A stretch of 64,000 bases of DNA from Tequatrovirus BCH953P2. Each line of letters begins with the position of its first letter. Position 1 is the first letter of the stretch. The stretch lies in the sequence record OZ035785.1. One strand, given 5' to 3'. Positions 3,298-30,423 of the stretch are shown here, one piece after another. The position numbers and the translations under genes were made by a program. The notes below the pieces were generated by a model. The model saw nothing but the letters and a program-made list of their open reading frames with translations, had not been told where the DNA came from and made no database searches.

Positions 3298-4980
3298 TTA
3301 AACCATTACAGTAAATCGACCAACTTTCTTCATTTGAAGATGCTGACCATATGCTTGCGGGTCATGGTCTCTATGTGAAATAACAAAAACATTAGTATTT
3401 TTTAAACTATCTAAAATAGTTGAAATAGCTTTTACACCTTCAACGTCGGTCGCTGAATCAAAAACTTCATCAAGAATTAGTGTGTTTATTTTAACACCTG
3501 AAACTTTTTCAGCAATATCACGCCAAGTAAATAAAAGAGCAATATCAATTCGTGCTTTTTCACCTTGACTGAATGAAGCATAACTAAAATCTTCGCGACC
3601 ACGGGATTTAATTGTCTCATTAAATTCTTCATCTAATGTAAACACATAATCCGCTTCCATTATTTTAAGATAATGGTTAATCTGCTTATTAAATAATGGA
3701 ATGTACTTTTTAATAATAGCACCTTTAATACCAGAATCTTTGAGCATATCAGTCAAAATTCCTCGGTGGTATTTTTCCATTACTAAATTAGTTTTTGTCT
3801 TAACAATTTTATCAAGTTCTTCTTGAAGCAGTGCTATTTCATCAGCATGGTCAATAAACTCAGAAGATGCTTTTTCTATAGCTGCTTTAACTTTTTTGGC
3901 TTTATCTACCGTCGTGATTAGAGATTGCTTTTTATTGCGAATATCATTTGCCAACGACTGTTGGGTTTTAATATTATCTCGGTATTCATCAACAAGAACT
4001 TTTAAATTATCACGATGTGTTGAAAGCTGTTCAAACGAATGCGTACATTCAGAAACTTTATCTTTAATTTTAGAAACAACTTTATCACCGGAACTCAATT
4101 GTGACAAACAGGTTGGACATAATCCACCTTCGTGATACATATTAATGACTTTATTATACGAGTCAATTTTTGATTTAATTAAAAATGCTTCTTGACCGAT
4201 TTTATTAAATGCATCAGTCGGGTCTTCATCTAAAACAATATTAACTAATCTTTCATTAGCTTCTTCTATTTCCGATTTTAGCGTTCTAGCTTCTTTTGCC
4301 AAATCATCATACATATTTTGTAGACGAGTAAGGTTGTCACCCGTTAATTTTTTCTGGCGTTCAACGTTATCATTATATATTTTAATTTGTTGGATAATAC
4401 TATCTTTTTTAACATCAAGCACTTGGTTTTGTGAATTTAATTCACGTATTAGTGCTTTATTAAGCTTATCCATTTCAGCTAGTGTTCCTACCTCAAGCAG
4501 GTCTTCCACAAGCTTTCTTCGTGCAGGGGTCGACAAACCCATGAAAGGGGTATACCCTGCTGTACCAAGGACAACAATCTGCTTGAAACTGGCATATGAC
4601 ATTCCGATAAGCTGTTCAAATTCTGCTTGGAAATCTTTACTGCTGGCAGATTCATTAAGACGTGTACCGTTAACGGTGATTTCGAAAACGTTCGGTTTTT
4701 GTCCTCTTTTGATATAGTACTTTTTCTCATCATATTCCATCCACAGTTCAACTAAAAGTTCTTTCTTATTTGTGCTGTTTATTAATTGACCTTTCTTTAC
4801 ATCACGAAATGGCTTACCAAAAAGCCCAAATGTGATGGCTTCTAGCATAGTAGACTTACCACCGCCATTTCGTCCAGTAATAAGAGTTTTTTGAACCTTA
4901 TCTAATTGAATGTCAACTCCATTTTGACCAACTGACATTATATTTTTATATTTTACTCTATTAAGTTTAAAATTCTTCAC
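3298..4980 (-). CDS. 46: Recombination endonuclease subunit gp46 (SbcC/Rad50-like ATPase)
   Basis: 560 aa; N-terminal Walker A GRNGGGKST, long central coiled coil, C-terminal LILDEVFD motif. Confidence 0.9.
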   Translation of the reverse strand: MKNFKLNRVKYKNIMSVGQNGVDIQLDKVQKTLITGRNGGGKSTMLEAITFGLFGKPFRDVKKGQLINSTNKKELLVELWMEYDEKKYYIKRGQKPNVFEITVNGTRLNESASSKDFQAEFEQLIGMSYASFKQIVVLGTAGYTPFMGLSTPARRKLVEDLLEVGTLAEMDKLNKALIRELNSQNQVLDVKKDSIIQQIKIYNDNVERQKKLTGDNLTRLQNMYDDLAKEARTLKSEIEEANERLVNIVLDEDPTDAFNKIGQEAFLIKSKIDSYNKVINMYHEGGLCPTCLSQLSSGDKVVSKIKDKVSECTHSFEQLSTHRDNLKVLVDEYRDNIKTQQSLANDIRNKKQSLITTVDKAKKVKAAIEKASSEFIDHADEIALLQEELDKIVKTKTNLVMEKYHRGILTDMLKDSGIKGAIIKKYIPLFNKQINHYLKIMEADYVFTLDEEFNETIKSRGREDFSYASFSQGEKARIDIALLFTWRDIAEKVSGVKINTLILDEVFDSATDVEGVKAISTILDSLKNTNVFVISHRDHDPQAYGQHLQMKKVGRFTVMV

Positions 4981-10962: not shown

Positions 10963-11271
10963 TTAATCTTCTATGATATCTCTATCATATCCAAGTGAAA
11001 TGAGAGTTTCTTTGAAGTGTTTAATGTTCTTTTGTCTAGAATCATTAATGAAAATGACTGGATAACGAATGTTAAGAGATGTGAATCCAGCGCGTTTAGC
11101 AAGAGATACAATCAGTGGACGATCATACTCAATCTTACCATTATTTGTAAGAACTTTATAGAAAGTAAAAGGAGCATTGAGCTCCTTTAGAAGTTTTGTA
11201 ACTGATTGACATCCAGGACAACGACCTACTTCATCTGGAATTCCATAGACTTCAATCTTATTTTGTTTCAC
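10963..11271 (-). CDS. nrdH: NrdH-type glutaredoxin-like protein
   Basis: 102 aa with CPGC redox motif (VGRCPGCQSV); adjacent to nrdG/nrdD. Confidence 0.75.
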   Translation of the reverse strand: MKQNKIEVYGIPDEVGRCPGCQSVTKLLKELNAPFTFYKVLTNNGKIEYDRPLIVSLAKRAGFTSLNIRYPVIFINDSRQKNIKHFKETLISLGYDRDIIED

Positions 11272-14701: not shown

Positions 14702-15171
14702 TTTAAACTCTTTCTAAGCTGCTTCTTAAATGAAGCTATTAATTGTGTTTTGGTGTCAGATTCATTATATTCAAATCCTCTTTGAAGCATCTCAGCCATC
14801 ATTTCCTCTTTTCCTAAACGAGAAAATTCCTTTGATTTATCTCCAACGAAGTTAGGGTGAATATTATTTTGGGTGTAATCGGATTTTAAATAAGTAAGTA
14901 AATTTTCTAACCATTCAAGATAATCAACACCTTGTCCCTTTAAGCCAGAACGATTAAATTTATGCTTCATTTGACCTTCTGCGGCATTGCAGAGATTACA
15001 AAGCAATCCACGTACCTTTCCTGCTTTTGGTCCATTTAATTCATGGTCATGGTCAAGGTGATTAGCTTGAACGTCAGGATTTAGTTCTCGTTGGCAAATT
15101 AAGCATTTACCATTTTGTGCATCATAAAATTTCTGTTTTTCTTCTTTATATAATTTGCCAGTCAATAACAT
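14698..15171 (-). CDS. 49: Endonuclease VII (Holliday junction resolvase)
   Basis: 157 aa matching remembered T4 endo VII (MLLTGKLYKEEKQKFYDAQNGKCLICQREL...HLDHDH). Confidence 0.9.
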   Translation of the reverse strand: MLLTGKLYKEEKQKFYDAQNGKCLICQRELNPDVQANHLDHDHELNGPKAGKVRGLLCNLCNAAEGQMKHKFNRSGLKGQGVDYLEWLENLLTYLKSDYTQNNIHPNFVGDKSKEFSRLGKEEMMAEMLQRGFEYNESDTKTQLIASFKKQLRKSLK

Positions 15172-25328: not shown

Positions 25329-25850
25329 TTATCCTTTCATTGAAGGCGTAACGGTTGTTAAATACTTAATCATAGCTTCAGCTTCTGATTTTGATAATGA
25401 AATTTCTCCATTGTTTTGACGAATAGAAATAAAATCCGGATGACGGTCACCACCAGCTTTTAAAACACACATATAAGTATCAGTTTCACCTTCAATATTT
25501 GAAATGATTGAAGCAGTTCCGCATGAATGTGGTTTTTGATAAATCAATACAGCTTTTCTTCCACCATTTGACTGCTCATAGGCTTTTAATACATCAAACA
25601 AATCAGTTCTTTTATCAATAGCTAAGATGTTATTTTCATCTTCAATGTTAAATCCTTCGGATACTTCATAAAGCGTTACCCATAAATCACCGATGTCAAT
25701 AACAGCATTTACTTTTCCACGGCTTTCAAGAGTATGACAAATTTTCTTGATTTCATCATAACTCATTTTAATAATATCATCTCCTTGAATAAGGAAGATG
25801 TCATTTTTAAATTCAACGCGAATTAAACCGCTTCCACTTGAAATAAACAT
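25329..25850 (-). CDS. Hypothetical protein, tandem paralogue A
   Basis: 173 aa; C-terminus SKSEAEAMIKYLTTVTPSMKG resembles the neighbour's C-terminus. Confidence 0.45.
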   Translation of the reverse strand: MFISSGSGLIRVEFKNDIFLIQGDDIIKMSYDEIKKICHTLESRGKVNAVIDIGDLWVTLYEVSEGFNIEDENNILAIDKRTDLFDVLKAYEQSNGGRKAVLIYQKPHSCGTASIISNIEGETDTYMCVLKAGGDRHPDFISIRQNNGEISLSKSEAEAMIKYLTTVTPSMKG

Positions 25851-25856
25851 ATTTCC

Positions 25857-26390
25857 TCACTTTGAAATCATAGTTGGAATGACAGAATCAAGATAAGTCT
25901 TTAGCGCAATAGCTTCGTCTTTGTTTAATGTAATGATATGTGATCGAAAATCGTCAATTTGACGAATAGATACTACATCTCCCTCTTCATAGCATTTTGA
26001 CACATTTAAAATAGTTTCATCATTCTGATTACAGGAGTTAGTAATAATAGCATTACATTTTTTAAACCATTTTAAATTATGTTTTCTTTTAGTAGAATCA
26101 TAAAAATATTTAATCTTAGTTATAAAATTATCCCAATTATTAATTGATAAGCACATTGACTCACTTTTAATATTAAATCCTGGGCATGAAGAATAAAAAT
26201 GAATTTTGTGCTCATCATTGATGCTTACTATTTTATCAGTATAAGCATATTCAATTTGGGTTAAACGAACAATTTCACTAGGCGTAAAATATAACATATC
26301 ATCTTCTTGCGTCAAACGATACATATTATTTACTTTTTCTATAGCCAATTCACCAAAAAGTGAACTAACTTCTAATACTAATCGTTTCAT
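25857..26390 (-). CDS. Hypothetical protein, tandem paralogue B
   Basis: 177 aa; C-terminus NKDEAIALKTYLDSVIPTMISK. Confidence 0.45.
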   Translation of the reverse strand: MKRLVLEVSSLFGELAIEKVNNMYRLTQEDDMLYFTPSEIVRLTQIEYAYTDKIVSINDEHKIHFYSSCPGFNIKSESMCLSINNWDNFITKIKYFYDSTKRKHNLKWFKKCNAIITNSCNQNDETILNVSKCYEEGDVVSIRQIDDFRSHIITLNKDEAIALKTYLDSVIPTMISK

Positions 26391-26391
26391 A

Positions 26392-26670
26392 TTAATCCTT
26401 TTTATTTGCGCTGATTTGTTCTAAAATTTTAGAGTATTCCTTTTTATCGGATTTACGTACAATCGATACACAATAAGGCATACTGTCGGTGTCTTTAATA
26501 AAACGTTCTAAATGGCACTTTAATAAAATTTCTGGATTATAAAGAGTATACATCAAATTCCCAGTCGCTCCGCGATATTGACAAATTTCCACGGATTTGA
26601 CATCATTCCATAAATTTGTTAAAACTAAGTCACCTACTTCTAATTTAGGAAAACTCATATTATTCACCAA
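26392..26670 (-). CDS. Hypothetical protein
   Basis: 92 aa ORF. Confidence 0.4.
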   Translation of the reverse strand: MVNNMSFPKLEVGDLVLTNLWNDVKSVEICQYRGATGNLMYTLYNPEILLKCHLERFIKDTDSMPYCVSIVRKSDKKEYSKILEQISANKKD

Positions 26671-26842
26671 TTAAAGTTTCAACAAAATTCACTAAATCGT
26701 TCTGGCGAGCGTCAACCTGTTTTTCATAGAAATCAGCAGCGCCATCATTTACTGCGTGATAAGCCACATCATTTAAATCGGTATCGGCTTCACGTAAGTC
26801 ATGAATAAGGTCCATCAACTTATTGGCTTGTTCACGGGTCAT
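26660..26842 (-). CDS. Small helical protein, family member 1
   Basis: 60 aa, MTREQANKLMDLIHDLREAD...DLVNFVETLIGE. Confidence 0.45.
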   Translation of the reverse strand: MTREQANKLMDLIHDLREADTDLNDVAYHAVNDGAADFYEKQVDARQNDLVNFVETLIGE

Positions 26843-26974
26843 TACATACTCCTTTGAATAATATCAATAATGTTGTTCACCAGATTATAGGTAAACAAAG
26901 GATAATTATATTGAATCATCACATACACAACAAACAAAATTTTCATTCTCTTCTCCCCAGCAGTTGACAAGATT

Positions 26975-27004
26975 ACTATACCATAACCTTATCAACTTGT
27001 AAAC
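26975..27004 (-). promoter_or_regulatory. Early sigma70-type promoter
   Basis: Minus-strand GTTTAC-N18-TATAGT in the 26843-27006 intergenic gap. Confidence 0.45.
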
Positions 27005-27006
27005 CA

Positions 27007-27180
27007 TTAAATGACGTTTTCAATAAAATTCTGAAGCTTTGTGTGAGCATCAACCATGATTTTCATTTCTTCCTTTGCGAAAGCTGTACCTCTTTCCCGA
27101 GCAGAATACTCATAGTCAGAAACTGCATTAGCATATTCTTCAATTAGCTTCATTAAAAACATCTGCTTTTCAGTTTTCAT
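27007..27180 (-). CDS. Small helical protein, family member 2 (not in ORF track)
   Basis: Hand-translated 57 aa MKTEKQMFLMKLIEEYANAVSDYEYSARERGTAFAKEEMKIMVDAHTKLQNFIENVI; start overlaps the stop of the 27170..27364 ORF. Confidence 0.4.
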   Translation of the reverse strand: MKTEKQMFLMKLIEEYANAVSDYEYSARERGTAFAKEEMKIMVDAHTKLQNFIENVI

Positions 27181-27364
27181 TATTCCACCTAATCATTTCA
27201 AGATATTGAACTAATTTAGCTTTAGATTTATCCAAATCCCTTTTAGCTGCTTCTATACCATCGTATGAATATCCTTCACAATGCTCAACTGCTAATTGAT
27301 ATGAATCTATTTCAATATCACGTGCTAATTTAATGATTTTTTCAAACTGATCGCATGTTAGCAT
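27170..27364 (-). CDS. Small helical protein, family member 3
   Basis: 64 aa, MLTCDQFEKIIKLARDIEID...KLVQYLEMI. Confidence 0.45.
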   Translation of the reverse strand: MLTCDQFEKIIKLARDIEIDSYQLAVEHCEGYSYDGIEAAKRDLDKSKAKLVQYLEMIRWNNEN

Positions 27365-27366
27365 AC

Positions 27367-27570
27367 TTACACTCTCGTATTATGATCGATAATTTCATCA
27401 AGAAACATATCTAACGCTTCTAAAGCATTATCCACTTTAGTTTCAAAGTCTTTAATGCCTTTATTCGAAATACCCGATGAATACCAAGCAAAGTTAATGC
27501 GCTCCTCATCTGCTTTACGAATTAAAGCTACCAATTCCTTAATTTTATCAGCTTGTTCGATACTAATCAT
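27367..27570 (-). CDS. Small helical protein, family member 4
   Basis: Start set at [23 protein letters not shown]; TAATG overlap with the upstream gene. Confidence 0.45.
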   Translation of the reverse strand: MISIEQADKIKELVALIRKADEERINFAWYSSGISNKGIKDFETKVDNALEALDMFLDEIIDHNTRV

Positions 27571-27758
27571 TATTCCACCACATATGAAAGAGAGAATATT
27601 GCACACGCCATGTGAGTTGCAACTTCATCACACATATTATAACGTTTCTTAAGAAGTTCTACAAGTTCTTCACTAGTAACTTCATCCATGTCGACGAAAA
27701 AATCACCATTAATGATGACGTAGATATTTCCTTCTTGATTGAGTGCTTCAATTTTCAT
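27570..27758 (-). CDS. Hypothetical small protein
   Basis: 62 aa from [27 protein letters not shown] 8 nt upstream; early-promoter-like motif at 27787-27816. Confidence 0.45.
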
Positions 27759-27786
27759 GATGTTCTCCTCTTTATCCGATGGTTGT

Positions 27787-27816
27787 ATAGTACCACAGCT
27801 CAAACGGAAAGTAAAC
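27787..27816 (-). promoter_or_regulatory. Early sigma70-type promoter
   Basis: Minus-strand GTTTAC-N18-TACTAT upstream of the 27570..27758 ORF. Confidence 0.5.
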
Positions 27817-27824
27817 CGGTAAAA

Positions 27825-27847
27825 TGAAAAAGTCTCCCGAAGGAGAC
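27825..27847 (-). terminator. Rho-independent terminator
   Basis: Hairpin GTCTCC-CGAA-GGAGAC with minus-strand T tract, just after the 27853..28239 stop. Confidence 0.55.
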
Positions 27848-27852
27848 TAATG

Positions 27853-28239
27853 TTATTCGAGGGAAAGAAGATACTTACTCTGGTAAAACATTCCAGTAAT
27901 ATCATCTATCGTGCTTTGGATGGCTGGAGGCATTTCTTTATAAATGCTGTTAGATTGGTCTAGTATGCGATCAATCATTTTAATTGTGTCGGTAGGAAGT
28001 TTACTGGCATCTGGAATTGAAGGCGTGTATTTTCTACCAGAATACCCCAAATATTGCTCACCAAATTTATCAATCAAATCTGGCAACTCGGAGAAAATAA
28101 AATCGTATGCTTTGTGTCTAGCATAATTTTTAGTTTCAAAATGTGCAGAATGAAAATAAGCTTGTGCAGCCATTAATAAACCTAAGTATTCATCTGCCTT
28201 TGAAGGTTTTCCACTTTGTGAAAAGTCGCTGAATTTCAT
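27853..28239 (-). CDS. Hypothetical protein (rI.-1 position)
   Basis: 128 aa ORF immediately upstream of rI. Confidence 0.45.
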
Positions 28240-28529
28240 TCAGTCTCCAATTTAATGTTCATAATTCTAGCGTATGATTGTGCCATCTCCGTGCCTCGTT
28301 CTATACATTCAAAATCAGAAGAGCACGGGTCATTTTTATAGGTCGTTCTCATAAAACTATAGAATTGTTCAGACGATTCTACGCTTTTATTTTCAAAAAG
28401 CATATAAACGTGCCTAATACCAGATTCCATAAATTTATCAAAATGAGGATCGACATTCGCTTCAATCGATGGAGATAAAACAAATGACAATCCTAGCATG
28501 GCAAAAAGTGCCGTTGCTTTTAAGGCCAT
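28236..28529 (-). CDS. rI: Lysis-inhibition regulator RI
   Basis: 97 aa matching remembered T4 RI (MALKATALFAMLGLSFVLSPSIEANVDPHFDKFMESG), signal-anchor N-terminus. Confidence 0.85.
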   Translation of the reverse strand: MALKATALFAMLGLSFVLSPSIEANVDPHFDKFMESGIRHVYMLFENKSVESSEQFYSFMRTTYKNDPCSSDFECIERGTEMAQSYARIMNIKLETE

Positions 28530-28541
28530 AAAGGCCTCCTA

Positions 28542-28754
28542 TCATTTTTGTCCTGTATTTACTTTATGCCGATGCACGGCCTTAACTTTATCAAGGTATT
28601 TTTCAAAATTTCGCAATCTAGTATAGTCTGCCGGAGATTGGTTGAGTGATACTTCTCGACGCAAAGCTGAAATGATATTTCCAACTTCCCTACGAATTTC
28701 ATCTAATTGAAGCACAGTAAGATTGCGAAGTTGCTTTTCAGTTAATTGTAGCAT
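28542..28754 (-). CDS. Hypothetical protein (rI.1 position)
   Basis: 70 aa ORF. Confidence 0.4.
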
Positions 28755-28779
28755 ATATACCCCTTTAGTTAGATAAACC

Positions 28780-28787
28780 TATTTATA
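28780..28787 (-). promoter_or_regulatory. Late-promoter-like TATAAATA upstream of the rI.1/rI region
   Basis: Plus-strand TATTTATA 26 nt upstream of the 28542..28754 ORF start. Confidence 0.4.
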
Positions 28788-28796
28788 ACTTTTGCA

Positions 28797-29378
28797 CTAA
28801 CCAAGCTTTTTAGTTAATTCATTCCAATGTTTTCTACACAAAGAAACATAAATTTCATCACCAATACAGATTTGATTACCTTCTTTAACTGGTGTTCCAT
28901 CTTCCATTAATCGAGCTGTCATAATCGCTTTTTTACCGCAATGACAAACTGCCTTTAGTTCAATAAGTTTATCTGCAATCGCTAAAAGTTCTTTAGAACC
29001 TTCAAACAATTTTCCAGCGAAATCAGTCCTTAGCCCATAAGCCATAACAGGAACATTATATGTATCAACAATTCGACTTAATTGATGCACCTGTTCAGTT
29101 TTTAAAAACTGAGCTTCATCTACAAATACGCAATGAATATCTTTTTGTGCTTCAGCCCATTTATAGAACTCGAAAATATCCATATCATCTGTAATAATAT
29201 TCGCTTCCTGCTTAATTCCAATGCGAGAAACTACTTCACAGACAGAATCGCGAGTATCAATAGCAGGCTTAAGAACTAATACACTCATTCCGCGTTCTTT
29301 ATAATTATGTGCAGCAGTCAAAAGAGAAGCAGATTTTCCAGCATTCATTGCTGCATAAGTAAAAATTAAACTCGCCAT
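28797..29378 (-). CDS. tk: Thymidine kinase
   Basis: 193 aa; P-loop AAMNAGKSASLL and C-terminal zinc-binding cysteines typical of type II thymidine kinases. Confidence 0.85.
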   Translation of the reverse strand: MASLIFTYAAMNAGKSASLLTAAHNYKERGMSVLVLKPAIDTRDSVCEVVSRIGIKQEANIITDDMDIFEFYKWAEAQKDIHCVFVDEAQFLKTEQVHQLSRIVDTYNVPVMAYGLRTDFAGKLFEGSKELLAIADKLIELKAVCHCGKKAIMTARLMEDGTPVKEGNQICIGDEIYVSLCRKHWNELTKKLG

Positions 29379-29379
29379 C

Positions 29380-29568
29380 TTAGTCCTTAGTTAAATTTTC
29401 TAAATATGTTTCTAAATCATTTTCAGCTTTATCGATAGATTTTACTAATTCGTAATATGTTTCGGCATCTCCATAATCAGAAGATAATTCAAAAGACAAA
29501 TCCTTTTCTAAACTAATAATTTCACCAACTAAAAATAATATTTCGTTCTTTTGTTCGCGAGTAATCAT
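29380..29568 (-). CDS. Small helical protein, family member 5
   Basis: 62 aa, MITREQKNEILFLVGEIISLEKD...DLETYLENL. Confidence 0.45.
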   Translation of the reverse strand: MITREQKNEILFLVGEIISLEKDLSFELSSDYGDAETYYELVKSIDKAENDLETYLENLTKD

Positions 29569-29756
29569 AAGGAATTTATATAATTAATAAGTTCTTGTTC
29601 TTTATTATCGAATTCTTTAGAAAGTTCTTCGTACTCGTTTGCACTAAAAGGACCGCATTCATTACAAACTTTTTCCAATTCACTATTTTTATCCATAACT
29701 TCGTGGATAAGAGAAAAGAGTTTGTCTTTTTGTTCTTTGCTTAAACTCATAACCAT
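29565..29756 (-). CDS. Small helical protein, family member 6
   Basis: 63 aa, MVMSLSKEQKDKLFSLIHEVMDK...ELINYINSL. Confidence 0.45.
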   Translation of the reverse strand: MVMSLSKEQKDKLFSLIHEVMDKNSELEKVCNECGPFSANEYEELSKEFDNKEQELINYINSL

Positions 29757-29974
29757 GTCACCTTTAAGCAGTATTCTTCTACATGCTGTTTACGACCTTT
29801 CTTATCAATAAAGGTATATTCAACGAATGTTCCAATGTAGTCTTTATCTACATCATGTGGACTATTAATTGGACATTTAGTACGGCAAATGCGTTCCCAT
29901 TGACGAATAATTACTGCTTTATTCTTTGGGTCATATGGATGTGGATAATGTATATTCATAATAACGGTTCCCAA
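29747..29974 (-). CDS. Hypothetical protein
   Basis: 75 aa ORF. Confidence 0.4.
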   Translation of the reverse strand: MGTVIMNIHYPHPYDPKNKAVIIRQWERICRTKCPINSPHDVDKDYIGTFVEYTFIDKKGRKQHVEEYCLKVTWL

Positions 29975-30423
29975 TCAACAATCACAATTTCTAATTTAGA
30001 GGAATACGTATCTAAAATCCCCTCAATAATATCCCAGTTCCCTTTACCTATGCCTGCACCAATCCTAGGCATATAGATTGTAGGTTTAATTAGTTTATTT
30101 TCACCAAACTCATTTAATTCTAACATACAATTCATTAAAGCGGAATACTCAAAATTTGGCCCTGGTTGAAATTGAGTATAAAGATTAAAGCAATACGCTT
30201 TATGAGTCCTAAAGTATTTTTCATAGACTGAGTAAGAACCGAGTTTAGTTACATCACCCCATTCAGTCTGTGATTTATCAGCTTCCAAAATTTTAGGGAA
30301 AGCTTTAGTTAATTGACCTGCGACTCCAGCTTTCATCATGTGAAAACAATTACATCCATGCGCAATATTTTTACCTTCAGTGAAAAGGGCGACAATATCG
30401 CCCTTGATATATTTTACAATCAT
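29956..30423 (-). CDS. Macro-domain-like protein
   Basis: 155 aa; GDIV...NIAHGCNCFHMMKAGVAGQL and PRIGAGIGKGNW resemble the macro-domain motifs GDIT...VNAAN...GGGV.GAI and P.I.TG.YG as seen in E. coli YmdB. Confidence 0.5.
   Translation of the reverse strand: MIVKYIKGDIVALFTEGKNIAHGCNCFHMMKAGVAGQLTKAFPKILEADKSQTEWGDVTKLGSYSVYEKYFRTHKAYCFNLYTQFQPGPNFEYSALMNCMLELNEFGENKLIKPTIYMPRIGAGIGKGNWDIIEGILDTYSSKLEIVIVDWEPLL

Follow-up and report, generated by a model that had tools for sequence, protein, structure and literature searches.

Bacteriophage T4 is the best-studied virulent phage, and yet roughly half of its genes still lack an assigned function. Five of its small genes, mobD.2a, mobD.3, mobD.4, tk.1 and tk.2, have been annotated for decades; they belong to a family that is already catalogued as Pfam DUF7438 and in PHROGs, and this family accounts for five or six of the small early genes of a T4-type phage. 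Here, we analyze a stretch of 64,000 nucleotides from Tequatrovirus BCH953P2 (sequence record OZ035785.1; henceforth, the window), in which six small minus-strand open reading frames (ORFs) near the genes rI and tk are members of DUF7438. In T4, time-resolved omics showed early RNA and early protein for mobD.3 and mobD.4, early RNA and middle protein for tk.1 and tk.2, and early RNA for a truncated mobD.2a of which no protein was detected (PMC9697503). The latter is consistent with a frameshift in T4 mobD.2a (contig L019, positions 4497-4678), as the annotated 38-residue product is only the N-terminal half of the frameshifted gene and the C-terminal half is legible in another frame. Moreover, a spontaneous large deletion from nrdC.11 to mobD.3, described for genome-reduced T4, is viable (PMC9825161); mobD.2a and mobD.3 lie within it and are thus dispensable for T4 in the laboratory.

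We propose that the six ORFs are early-expressed accessory paralogues, each encoding an acidic, antiparallel two-helix hairpin of about 60 residues. Such a hairpin would pair with itself or with a sibling to form a Rop-like four-helix bundle, and each paralogue would act on a different host or phage macromolecule, which it would bind and modulate through a surface of its own, the members serving as dispensable modulators of host takeover or counter-defence. We hold this reading tentatively, at a little less than an even chance. The six members, referred to as A to F, are the following (aa, amino acids; E-values and bit scores are those of the Pfam DUF7438 match).

26660..26842, minus strand: member A, 60 aa, RB69 'Tk.1'-type allele without counterpart in T4; E 6.3e-15, 55.7 bits
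27007..27180, minus strand: member B, mobD.2a orthologue, 57 aa; E 3.5e-16, 59.8 bits
27170..27364, minus strand: member C, mobD.3 orthologue, 64 aa; E 4.1e-15, 56.3 bits
27367..27570, minus strand: member D, mobD.4 orthologue, here in a long-loop form, 67 aa; E 3.3e-16, 59.8 bits
29380..29568, minus strand: member E, tk.1 orthologue, 62 aa; E 4.6e-15, 56.2 bits
29565..29756, minus strand: member F, tk.2 orthologue; E 4.4e-19, 69.0 bits

All six were recovered exactly where a previous reading of the bare sequence (the original prediction) had placed them. The true start of tk.2 is probably the ATG at 29750 (MSLSK..., 61 aa), which lies 7 nt after a GGTGA, as in its orthologues. The six ORFs are 95-100% identical to deposited Tequatrovirus and Mosigvirus proteins; member A, for instance, is 100% identical to P0005 of Shigella phage vb_GEC_SH_GT and 82% identical to RB69 'Tk.1' (P0071). 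Compared with the T4 reference, which has four intact copies, the frameshifted mobD.2a and no member A, the window thus carries six intact copies.

Pfam model matches, shuffle tests and leave-one-out hidden Markov models (HMMs) agree that the six ORFs form a single paralogous family, as originally predicted. Pfam PF24219 (DUF7438) matches each of them with E-values of 4e-19 to 6e-15 and 55.7-69 bits, against a gathering threshold of 25 bits, and every match is full-length, starting at position 1 or 2 of the 57-position model and ending at 56 or 57; the ORFs encode single-domain proteins. Because the model was probably seeded with the T4 orthologues, homology was also tested using the window alone. 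In Smith-Waterman alignments compared with 1000 shuffles, pairs A-B, A-D, A-E, A-F, E-F, C-E, C-F and B-F reached z-scores of 3.4-14, with 0-11 of the 1000 shuffles attaining the real score. Pairs B-C, B-D, A-C, D-E and D-F were not individually significant in this test; since other pairs connect the members that are at chance level with each other, their homology is transitive. When each ORF in turn was omitted from the training set, it was the top non-training match among the 919 six-frame ORFs of the window in six out of six cases (A, 48 bits; tk.1, 32; tk.2, 26; mobD.4, 16; mobD.3, 13; mobD.2a, 11). The weakest member is mobD.2a, for which the leave-one-out result taken alone is marginal (E 0.02). 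A profile of the six found no seventh member in the window. In view of the connected significant pairs and the leave-one-out ranks, the shared pattern does therefore exceed what shuffled controls produce.

These data bear directly on the rival view that the pattern reflects generic amphipathic-helix composition, or that the ORFs are non-functional remnants in a plastic region. The pairs at shuffle level, the 11 bits of mobD.2a and its frameshift in T4 all lean that way. However, the connected pairs, the match of one Pfam model to all six at E < 1e-14 and the first rank of each left-out ORF among 919 do not fit chance composition, nor do ratios of nonsynonymous to synonymous differences (pN/pS) of 0.07-0.18, the detection of four T4 orthologues as proteins and the maintenance of orthologues across genera at 46-88% identity. 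Taken together, the shuffle, Pfam, leave-one-out, selection, proteomic and orthologue tests refute this view, to which we assign next to no probability.

The other five paralogues are only 17-31% identical to member A, and no DNA-level repeats were found between paralogues. The description as a duplicated, diverging family is therefore appropriate, whereas recent duplication was rejected: besides the lack of repeats, the N-terminal motif is kept in the protein and not in the codons, which differ among the paralogues, indicating that the constraint acts on the protein.

Single-chain structure predictions were obtained for member A and mobD.2a, the two most different members. AlphaFold2 models member A confidently as a helix-loop-helix hairpin (predicted local distance difference test score, pLDDT, 91.6) with helices at residues 3-28 and 33-59, and mobD.2a likewise as a helix-loop-helix hairpin (pLDDT 95.6). 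A conservation profile derived from 34 diverse family representatives shows conserved hydrophobic heptad columns at positions 9, 12, 13, 16 and 23 of helix 1 and at positions 43, 50, 53, 54 and 57 of helix 2, forming a heptad core of hydrophobic a/d/e positions with small Ala layers (Ala at 19 and 46). The N-terminal M-I-T-x-E-Q is conserved as well (T2, E4, Q5), and positions outside these columns vary freely; the central Tyr, which had been proposed as a family hallmark, does not occupy a single conserved alignment column. Judged from this profile, the paralogues share the predicted hairpin scaffold, and conservation is strongest at the 'open' end, at which the two termini would meet; the remaining surface and the loop end differ among paralogues and yet are kept within each orthologue. 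The variation within orthologues, including indels in mobD.4, clusters around the loop, and the open end is nearly invariant.

With three hydrophobic positions per heptad, the predicted stripe exceeds the width that a single two-helix hairpin would require, and it is on this basis that we infer pairing into four-helix bundles; for an antiparallel homodimer in particular, the a/d/e stripe is suggestive only. All members are acidic, with isoelectric points of 4.05-5.29 among the 34 representatives and net charges of -2 to -10 for the six ORFs. In size and hairpin geometry, the protein closest to them among those of the same size is Rop of plasmid ColE1. They might bind RNA in the manner of Rop and, early in infection, modulate RNA-RNA or mRNA interactions. 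As a fold, however, the hairpin is generic, and the strongly negative net charge fits RNA binding poorly. Furthermore, the helix 1 surface positions that correspond to what we take to be the RNA-contact strip of Rop are variable across the family, and no sequence relation to Rop was detected, either as a Pfam match at E <= 1 or as a Rop chain at E <= 10 in a sequence profile search of the PDB. We therefore consider an RNA-binding role quite improbable.

Over the 3.7 kb surrounding the family, the window shares 95-97% identity with hundreds of Tequatrovirus genomes, the top match being Shigella phage vb_GEC_SH_GT (97.1%). With gene names taken from the annotations of RB14 and T4, the minus-strand order in the direction of transcription reads vs, tk.4 (macro domain), tk.3, tk.2, tk.1, tk, rI.1, rI, rI.-1, mobD.5, mobD.4, mobD.3, mobD.2a, mobD.2, member A, a phage tudor-domain gene and two mobD.1-like genes. 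This order amends the original prediction in several respects. Rather than flanking tk, tk.1 and tk.2 both lie immediately upstream of it, and the four mobD-side members, said to be upstream of rI, follow rI, rI.-1 and mobD.5 in the direction of transcription. These four are indeed clustered, but they are not a simple tandem array, as an early-promoter-like site and the 34-codon mobD.2 ORF part mobD.2a from member A.

Neighbouring genes are closely interlocked. The start of tk.2's downstream neighbour tk.1 is overlapped by tk.2 (ATGA), and the tk.1 stop is 1 nt ahead of the tk start; mobD.4 and member A each start within the stop of the preceding gene, mobD.5 and mobD.2, respectively (TAATG in both cases), and the 3' end of mobD.3 overlaps the mobD.2a start by 11 nt. 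The stop/start overlaps indicate translational coupling. Two putative regulatory elements were found in the mobD-side region.

26975..27003, minus strand: early-promoter-like site between mobD.2a and mobD.2, (G)TTTACA-17-TATAGT plus a TG extension, 10/12 matches
27787..27848, minus strand: terminator-like hairpin (27848-27831) plus T run, then GTTTAC (27816-27811) and TACTAT (27792-27787)

The first element resembles the T4 early-promoter class and would drive mobD.2, member A and the genes downstream. The second would be a terminator/early-promoter module of the promoter-early stem-loop (PeSL) type, placed upstream of mobD.5, mobD.4, mobD.3 and mobD.2a and at the boundary of the mobD.5-mobD.2a unit. 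PeSLs have been proposed to mediate module shuffling in the hyperplastic regions of T4-like phages (PMC4122927).

To determine the distribution of the family, 1.84 billion representative proteins were searched exhaustively with a profile, yielding 35 clusters at E <= 1e-3, one of which is a repeat-protein false positive. The ~34 true clusters comprise proteins of 49-76 residues, mostly 57-67 aa, and most of them begin with MIT.EQ. All matches of an indexed search were located on phage contigs of 160-171 kb or in named Tevenvirinae phages. In T4 itself, a scan of 1-32, 53.5-61.5 and 120-169 kb returned the known five only, plus a weak match to pseT.1. This 75-aa protein (contig L021, positions 14908-15135; N-terminus MISWHQFEHLKGLI..., C-terminus ...DLHDYIQSLVEKK) gives a weak, split match to the family HMM (E 0.004) and is not matched by the Pfam DUF7438 model; possibly it is a remote relative in the family whose loop is longer. 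Copies at the genus level were counted by scanning tk +/- 9 kb with the family HMM in representative genera.

This window: 6 copies
RB14 (Tequatrovirus): 6 copies
Mosigvirus JN02: 3 copies
Gelderlandvirus NP4: 2 copies
Yersinia phage P8 (unclassified): 2 copies
Jiaodavirus KP179: 1 copy
Karamvirus VPA32: 0 copies
Krischvirus, two genomes: 0 copies

Wherever the family is present, that is in Tequatrovirus, Mosigvirus, Gelderlandvirus, Jiaodavirus and Yersinia phage P8, one member adjoins the tk start codon, while Karamvirus and Krischvirus have kept tk and no family members were detected there within 9 kb. Ten further Tequatrovirus contigs carry 4, 5 or 6 copies. Often, one allele, tk.2-like and sharing 54-56% identity with tk.2, takes the place of the tk.2 and tk.1 pair in these contigs; in the Tequatrovirus contigs sampled, tk.1 and tk.2 are either both present or both absent. 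The position of member A is occupied by the allele seen here, by an unrelated-looking DUF7438 allele of the RB14ncORF101c type (32% identical), or is empty. In addition, chimeras that join a tk.2 N-terminus to a tk.1 C-terminus were found (P0032, P0098). ORFs of the RB32ORF110c/111c type, which also adjoin tk.2, were considered and found not to be family members.

The recurrent position next to tk raises a different explanation, in which the paralogues cooperate through their open end, either as hetero-oligomers or by contacting one common partner (e.g. thymidine kinase or the dNTP-synthesis machinery), and serve as adaptors or small subunits instead of independent effectors. Conservation across all paralogues is limited to residues that cluster at the open N-/C-terminal end, the genes are co-transcribed and translationally coupled, a member lies against the tk start codon in all five lineages named above, and tk.1 and tk.2 come and go together in the sampled Tequatrovirus contigs. 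On the other hand, most of the conserved positions belong to the core, so that conservation of the scaffold alone explains them. Moreover, Karamvirus and Krischvirus have tk and no detectable member within 9 kb, copy number is free to vary from 4 to 6 among near-identical phages, and T4 tolerates the loss of mobD.2a and mobD.3. On balance, such cooperation seems unlikely.

The paralogue types recur in other genera: the tk.2 type in Mosigvirus and Yersinia phage P8 (48-49% identity), the tk.1 type in Gelderlandvirus (64%), the mobD.3 type in Yersinia phage P8 (61%), and the mobD.2a and member-A types in Mosigvirus (46% and 88%, respectively). By these comparisons, the types are old and predate the genus splits. 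Member A stands apart, in that it is 88% identical to its counterpart in Mosigvirus JN02 (contig L002, positions 11047-11238), compared with 46-48% for the other shared types and 82% for Tk. This high identity, together with the existence of a 32%-identical allele within Tequatrovirus, points either to lateral exchange or to a balanced polymorphism of long standing.

Selection was assessed from pN/pS by the Nei-Gojobori method, with estimates pooled from the window, from RB14 and from the ten further contigs; tk.1 was left out because too few sequences were available.

mobD.2a: pN/pS 0.07
mobD.3: pN/pS 0.08
tk.2: pN/pS 0.07
mobD.4: pN/pS 0.18
tk (neighbour): pN/pS 0.01
rI (neighbour): pN/pS 0.13
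rI.1 (neighbour): pN/pS 0.09
mobD.5 (neighbour): pN/pS 0.09
tk.3 (neighbour): pN/pS 0.07

As estimated at the gene-wide level, the family genes encode functional proteins under purifying selection, and gene-wide positive selection was rejected on the basis of the range of 0.07-0.18.

The original prediction had described the ORFs as small effectors typical of genes under host-driven diversification. An early-transcribed, plastic region, copy numbers from 0 to 6, allele replacement at two loci and tk.2/tk.1 chimeras are all in keeping with this description. Nevertheless, we find it only partly borne out: pN/pS values are no higher than those of neighbouring genes, the paralogue types are old and variation within orthologues is found mainly at the loop end. 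The DUF7438 genes do fit the profile of phage anti-defence genes in being early, dispensable and polymorphic accessory genes. Several observations weigh against the proposed role as modulators of host takeover or counter-defence. No experiment or characterised homologue links any member to a target. Gene-wide purifying selection and the old age of the paralogue types are unlike a fast arms race. The member adjoining tk in five lineages could instead reflect a housekeeping function connected to nucleotide metabolism. Finally, in a published screen of 45 early Mosigvirus proteins, only six were growth-inhibitory, and the four presented in detail are not identified as DUF7438; whether the family is represented among the 45 was not checked.

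An extension of the proposed takeover or counter-defence role would be a hairpin toolkit, in which the open end pairs paralogues into homo- and heterodimeric bundles, the variable loop ends act as a combinatorial set of binders neutralising various host defence or housekeeping proteins, and gain, loss, allele swaps and chimeras tune the host range of T-even phages. This is speculative, and we regard it as having a rather small chance of being correct. The remaining probability falls to a role outside the readings discussed here.

Database labels currently attached to the family are of little help in this respect. Besides groups without assigned function, PHROGs includes the family under a 'helicase loader' label (PHROG 4859), which is found in Pharokka-style annotation and in GenBank records. 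This label was rejected: no loader Pfam domain of the T4 gp59, DnaC/IstB or lambda P type was detected at E <= 1, and the family HMM gives T4 gp59 a score of 0.9 bits. To our knowledge, a 60-aa hairpin is also far below the size of any helicase loader. Likewise, the RefSeq name 'molybdopterin-guanine dinucleotide biosynthesis protein MobD' was discarded, as no MobA/MobB-type match was found in Pfam or NCBIfam; it stems from confusion with the T4 gene name mobD, which denotes a homing endonuclease. Both labels are spread over homologues of 26660-26842 and 27367-27570. NCBIfam gave no match to the family, a PDB sequence profile search returned nothing credible, and PADLOC, which covers defence proteins and not inhibitors, gave no match either. 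Among solved anti-defence proteins, the PDB profile search yielded no significant match, the best being AcrIIC5 (E 3.7). Full-text literature searches found no functional study of DUF7438 members.

Further variation was observed in genes adjoining the family. Between tk.2 and tk.3 (window position ~29750; contig L001, 4950-5326; contigs L009-L018, ~1230-1610), two additional small ORFs are present in RB14, in T6 and in most of the contigs sampled, one encoding a Phage_zn_bind protein (PF23895) and the other 57-58 aa long; neither is DUF7438, and the window lacks both. The macro-domain gene tk.4 (29956-30423, minus strand) occurs as two alleles with 55-56% protein identity among Tequatrovirus contigs that are otherwise ~97% identical, which is again allelic replacement. 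At the other end, the mobD.1-like pair (25329-25850 and 25857-26390, minus strand; 173 and 177 aa) consists of adjacent paralogues adjoining the hairpin-gene cluster; in related contigs, both members of the pair have the Pfam domains T4_y05I_N and T4_y05I_C, making this a second tandem duplication beside the cluster.

The present analysis is a re-identification of a catalogued family. To the existing catalogue it adds paralogy established by independent tests, a fold prediction, a pattern of scaffold versus surface, the selection regime, a map of copy number and alleles, and the correction of two misleading labels. If the members are indeed specific binders of host or defence proteins, they would constitute a new and very compact inhibitor scaffold, and would help to explain differences in host range among nearly identical T-even phages.

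Three described systems invite comparison. Modelled DUF7438 proteins resemble ColE1 Rop/Rom in being helix-loop-helix hairpins of ~60 residues, a likeness of shape only; Rop regulates plasmid copy number, whereas DUF7438 proteins are phage-encoded and expressed early. Aqs1 of Pseudomonas phage DMS3 (PDB 6v7u) is likewise a very small, early, helical phage protein, and it binds host proteins; its structural match to DUF7438 is weak and not significant (template modelling score, TM, 0.67; E 1.4), and there is no sequence similarity. The internal proteins (Ips) of T-even phages offer a parallel in population behaviour, being a multi-copy T-even family with presence/absence and allele polymorphism (PMC12373910). 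The Ips have a capsid-targeting signal and are delivered by injection, and anti-restriction targets have been shown for them. DUF7438 proteins, in contrast, are synthesised after infection, lack such a signal and are under purifying selection.

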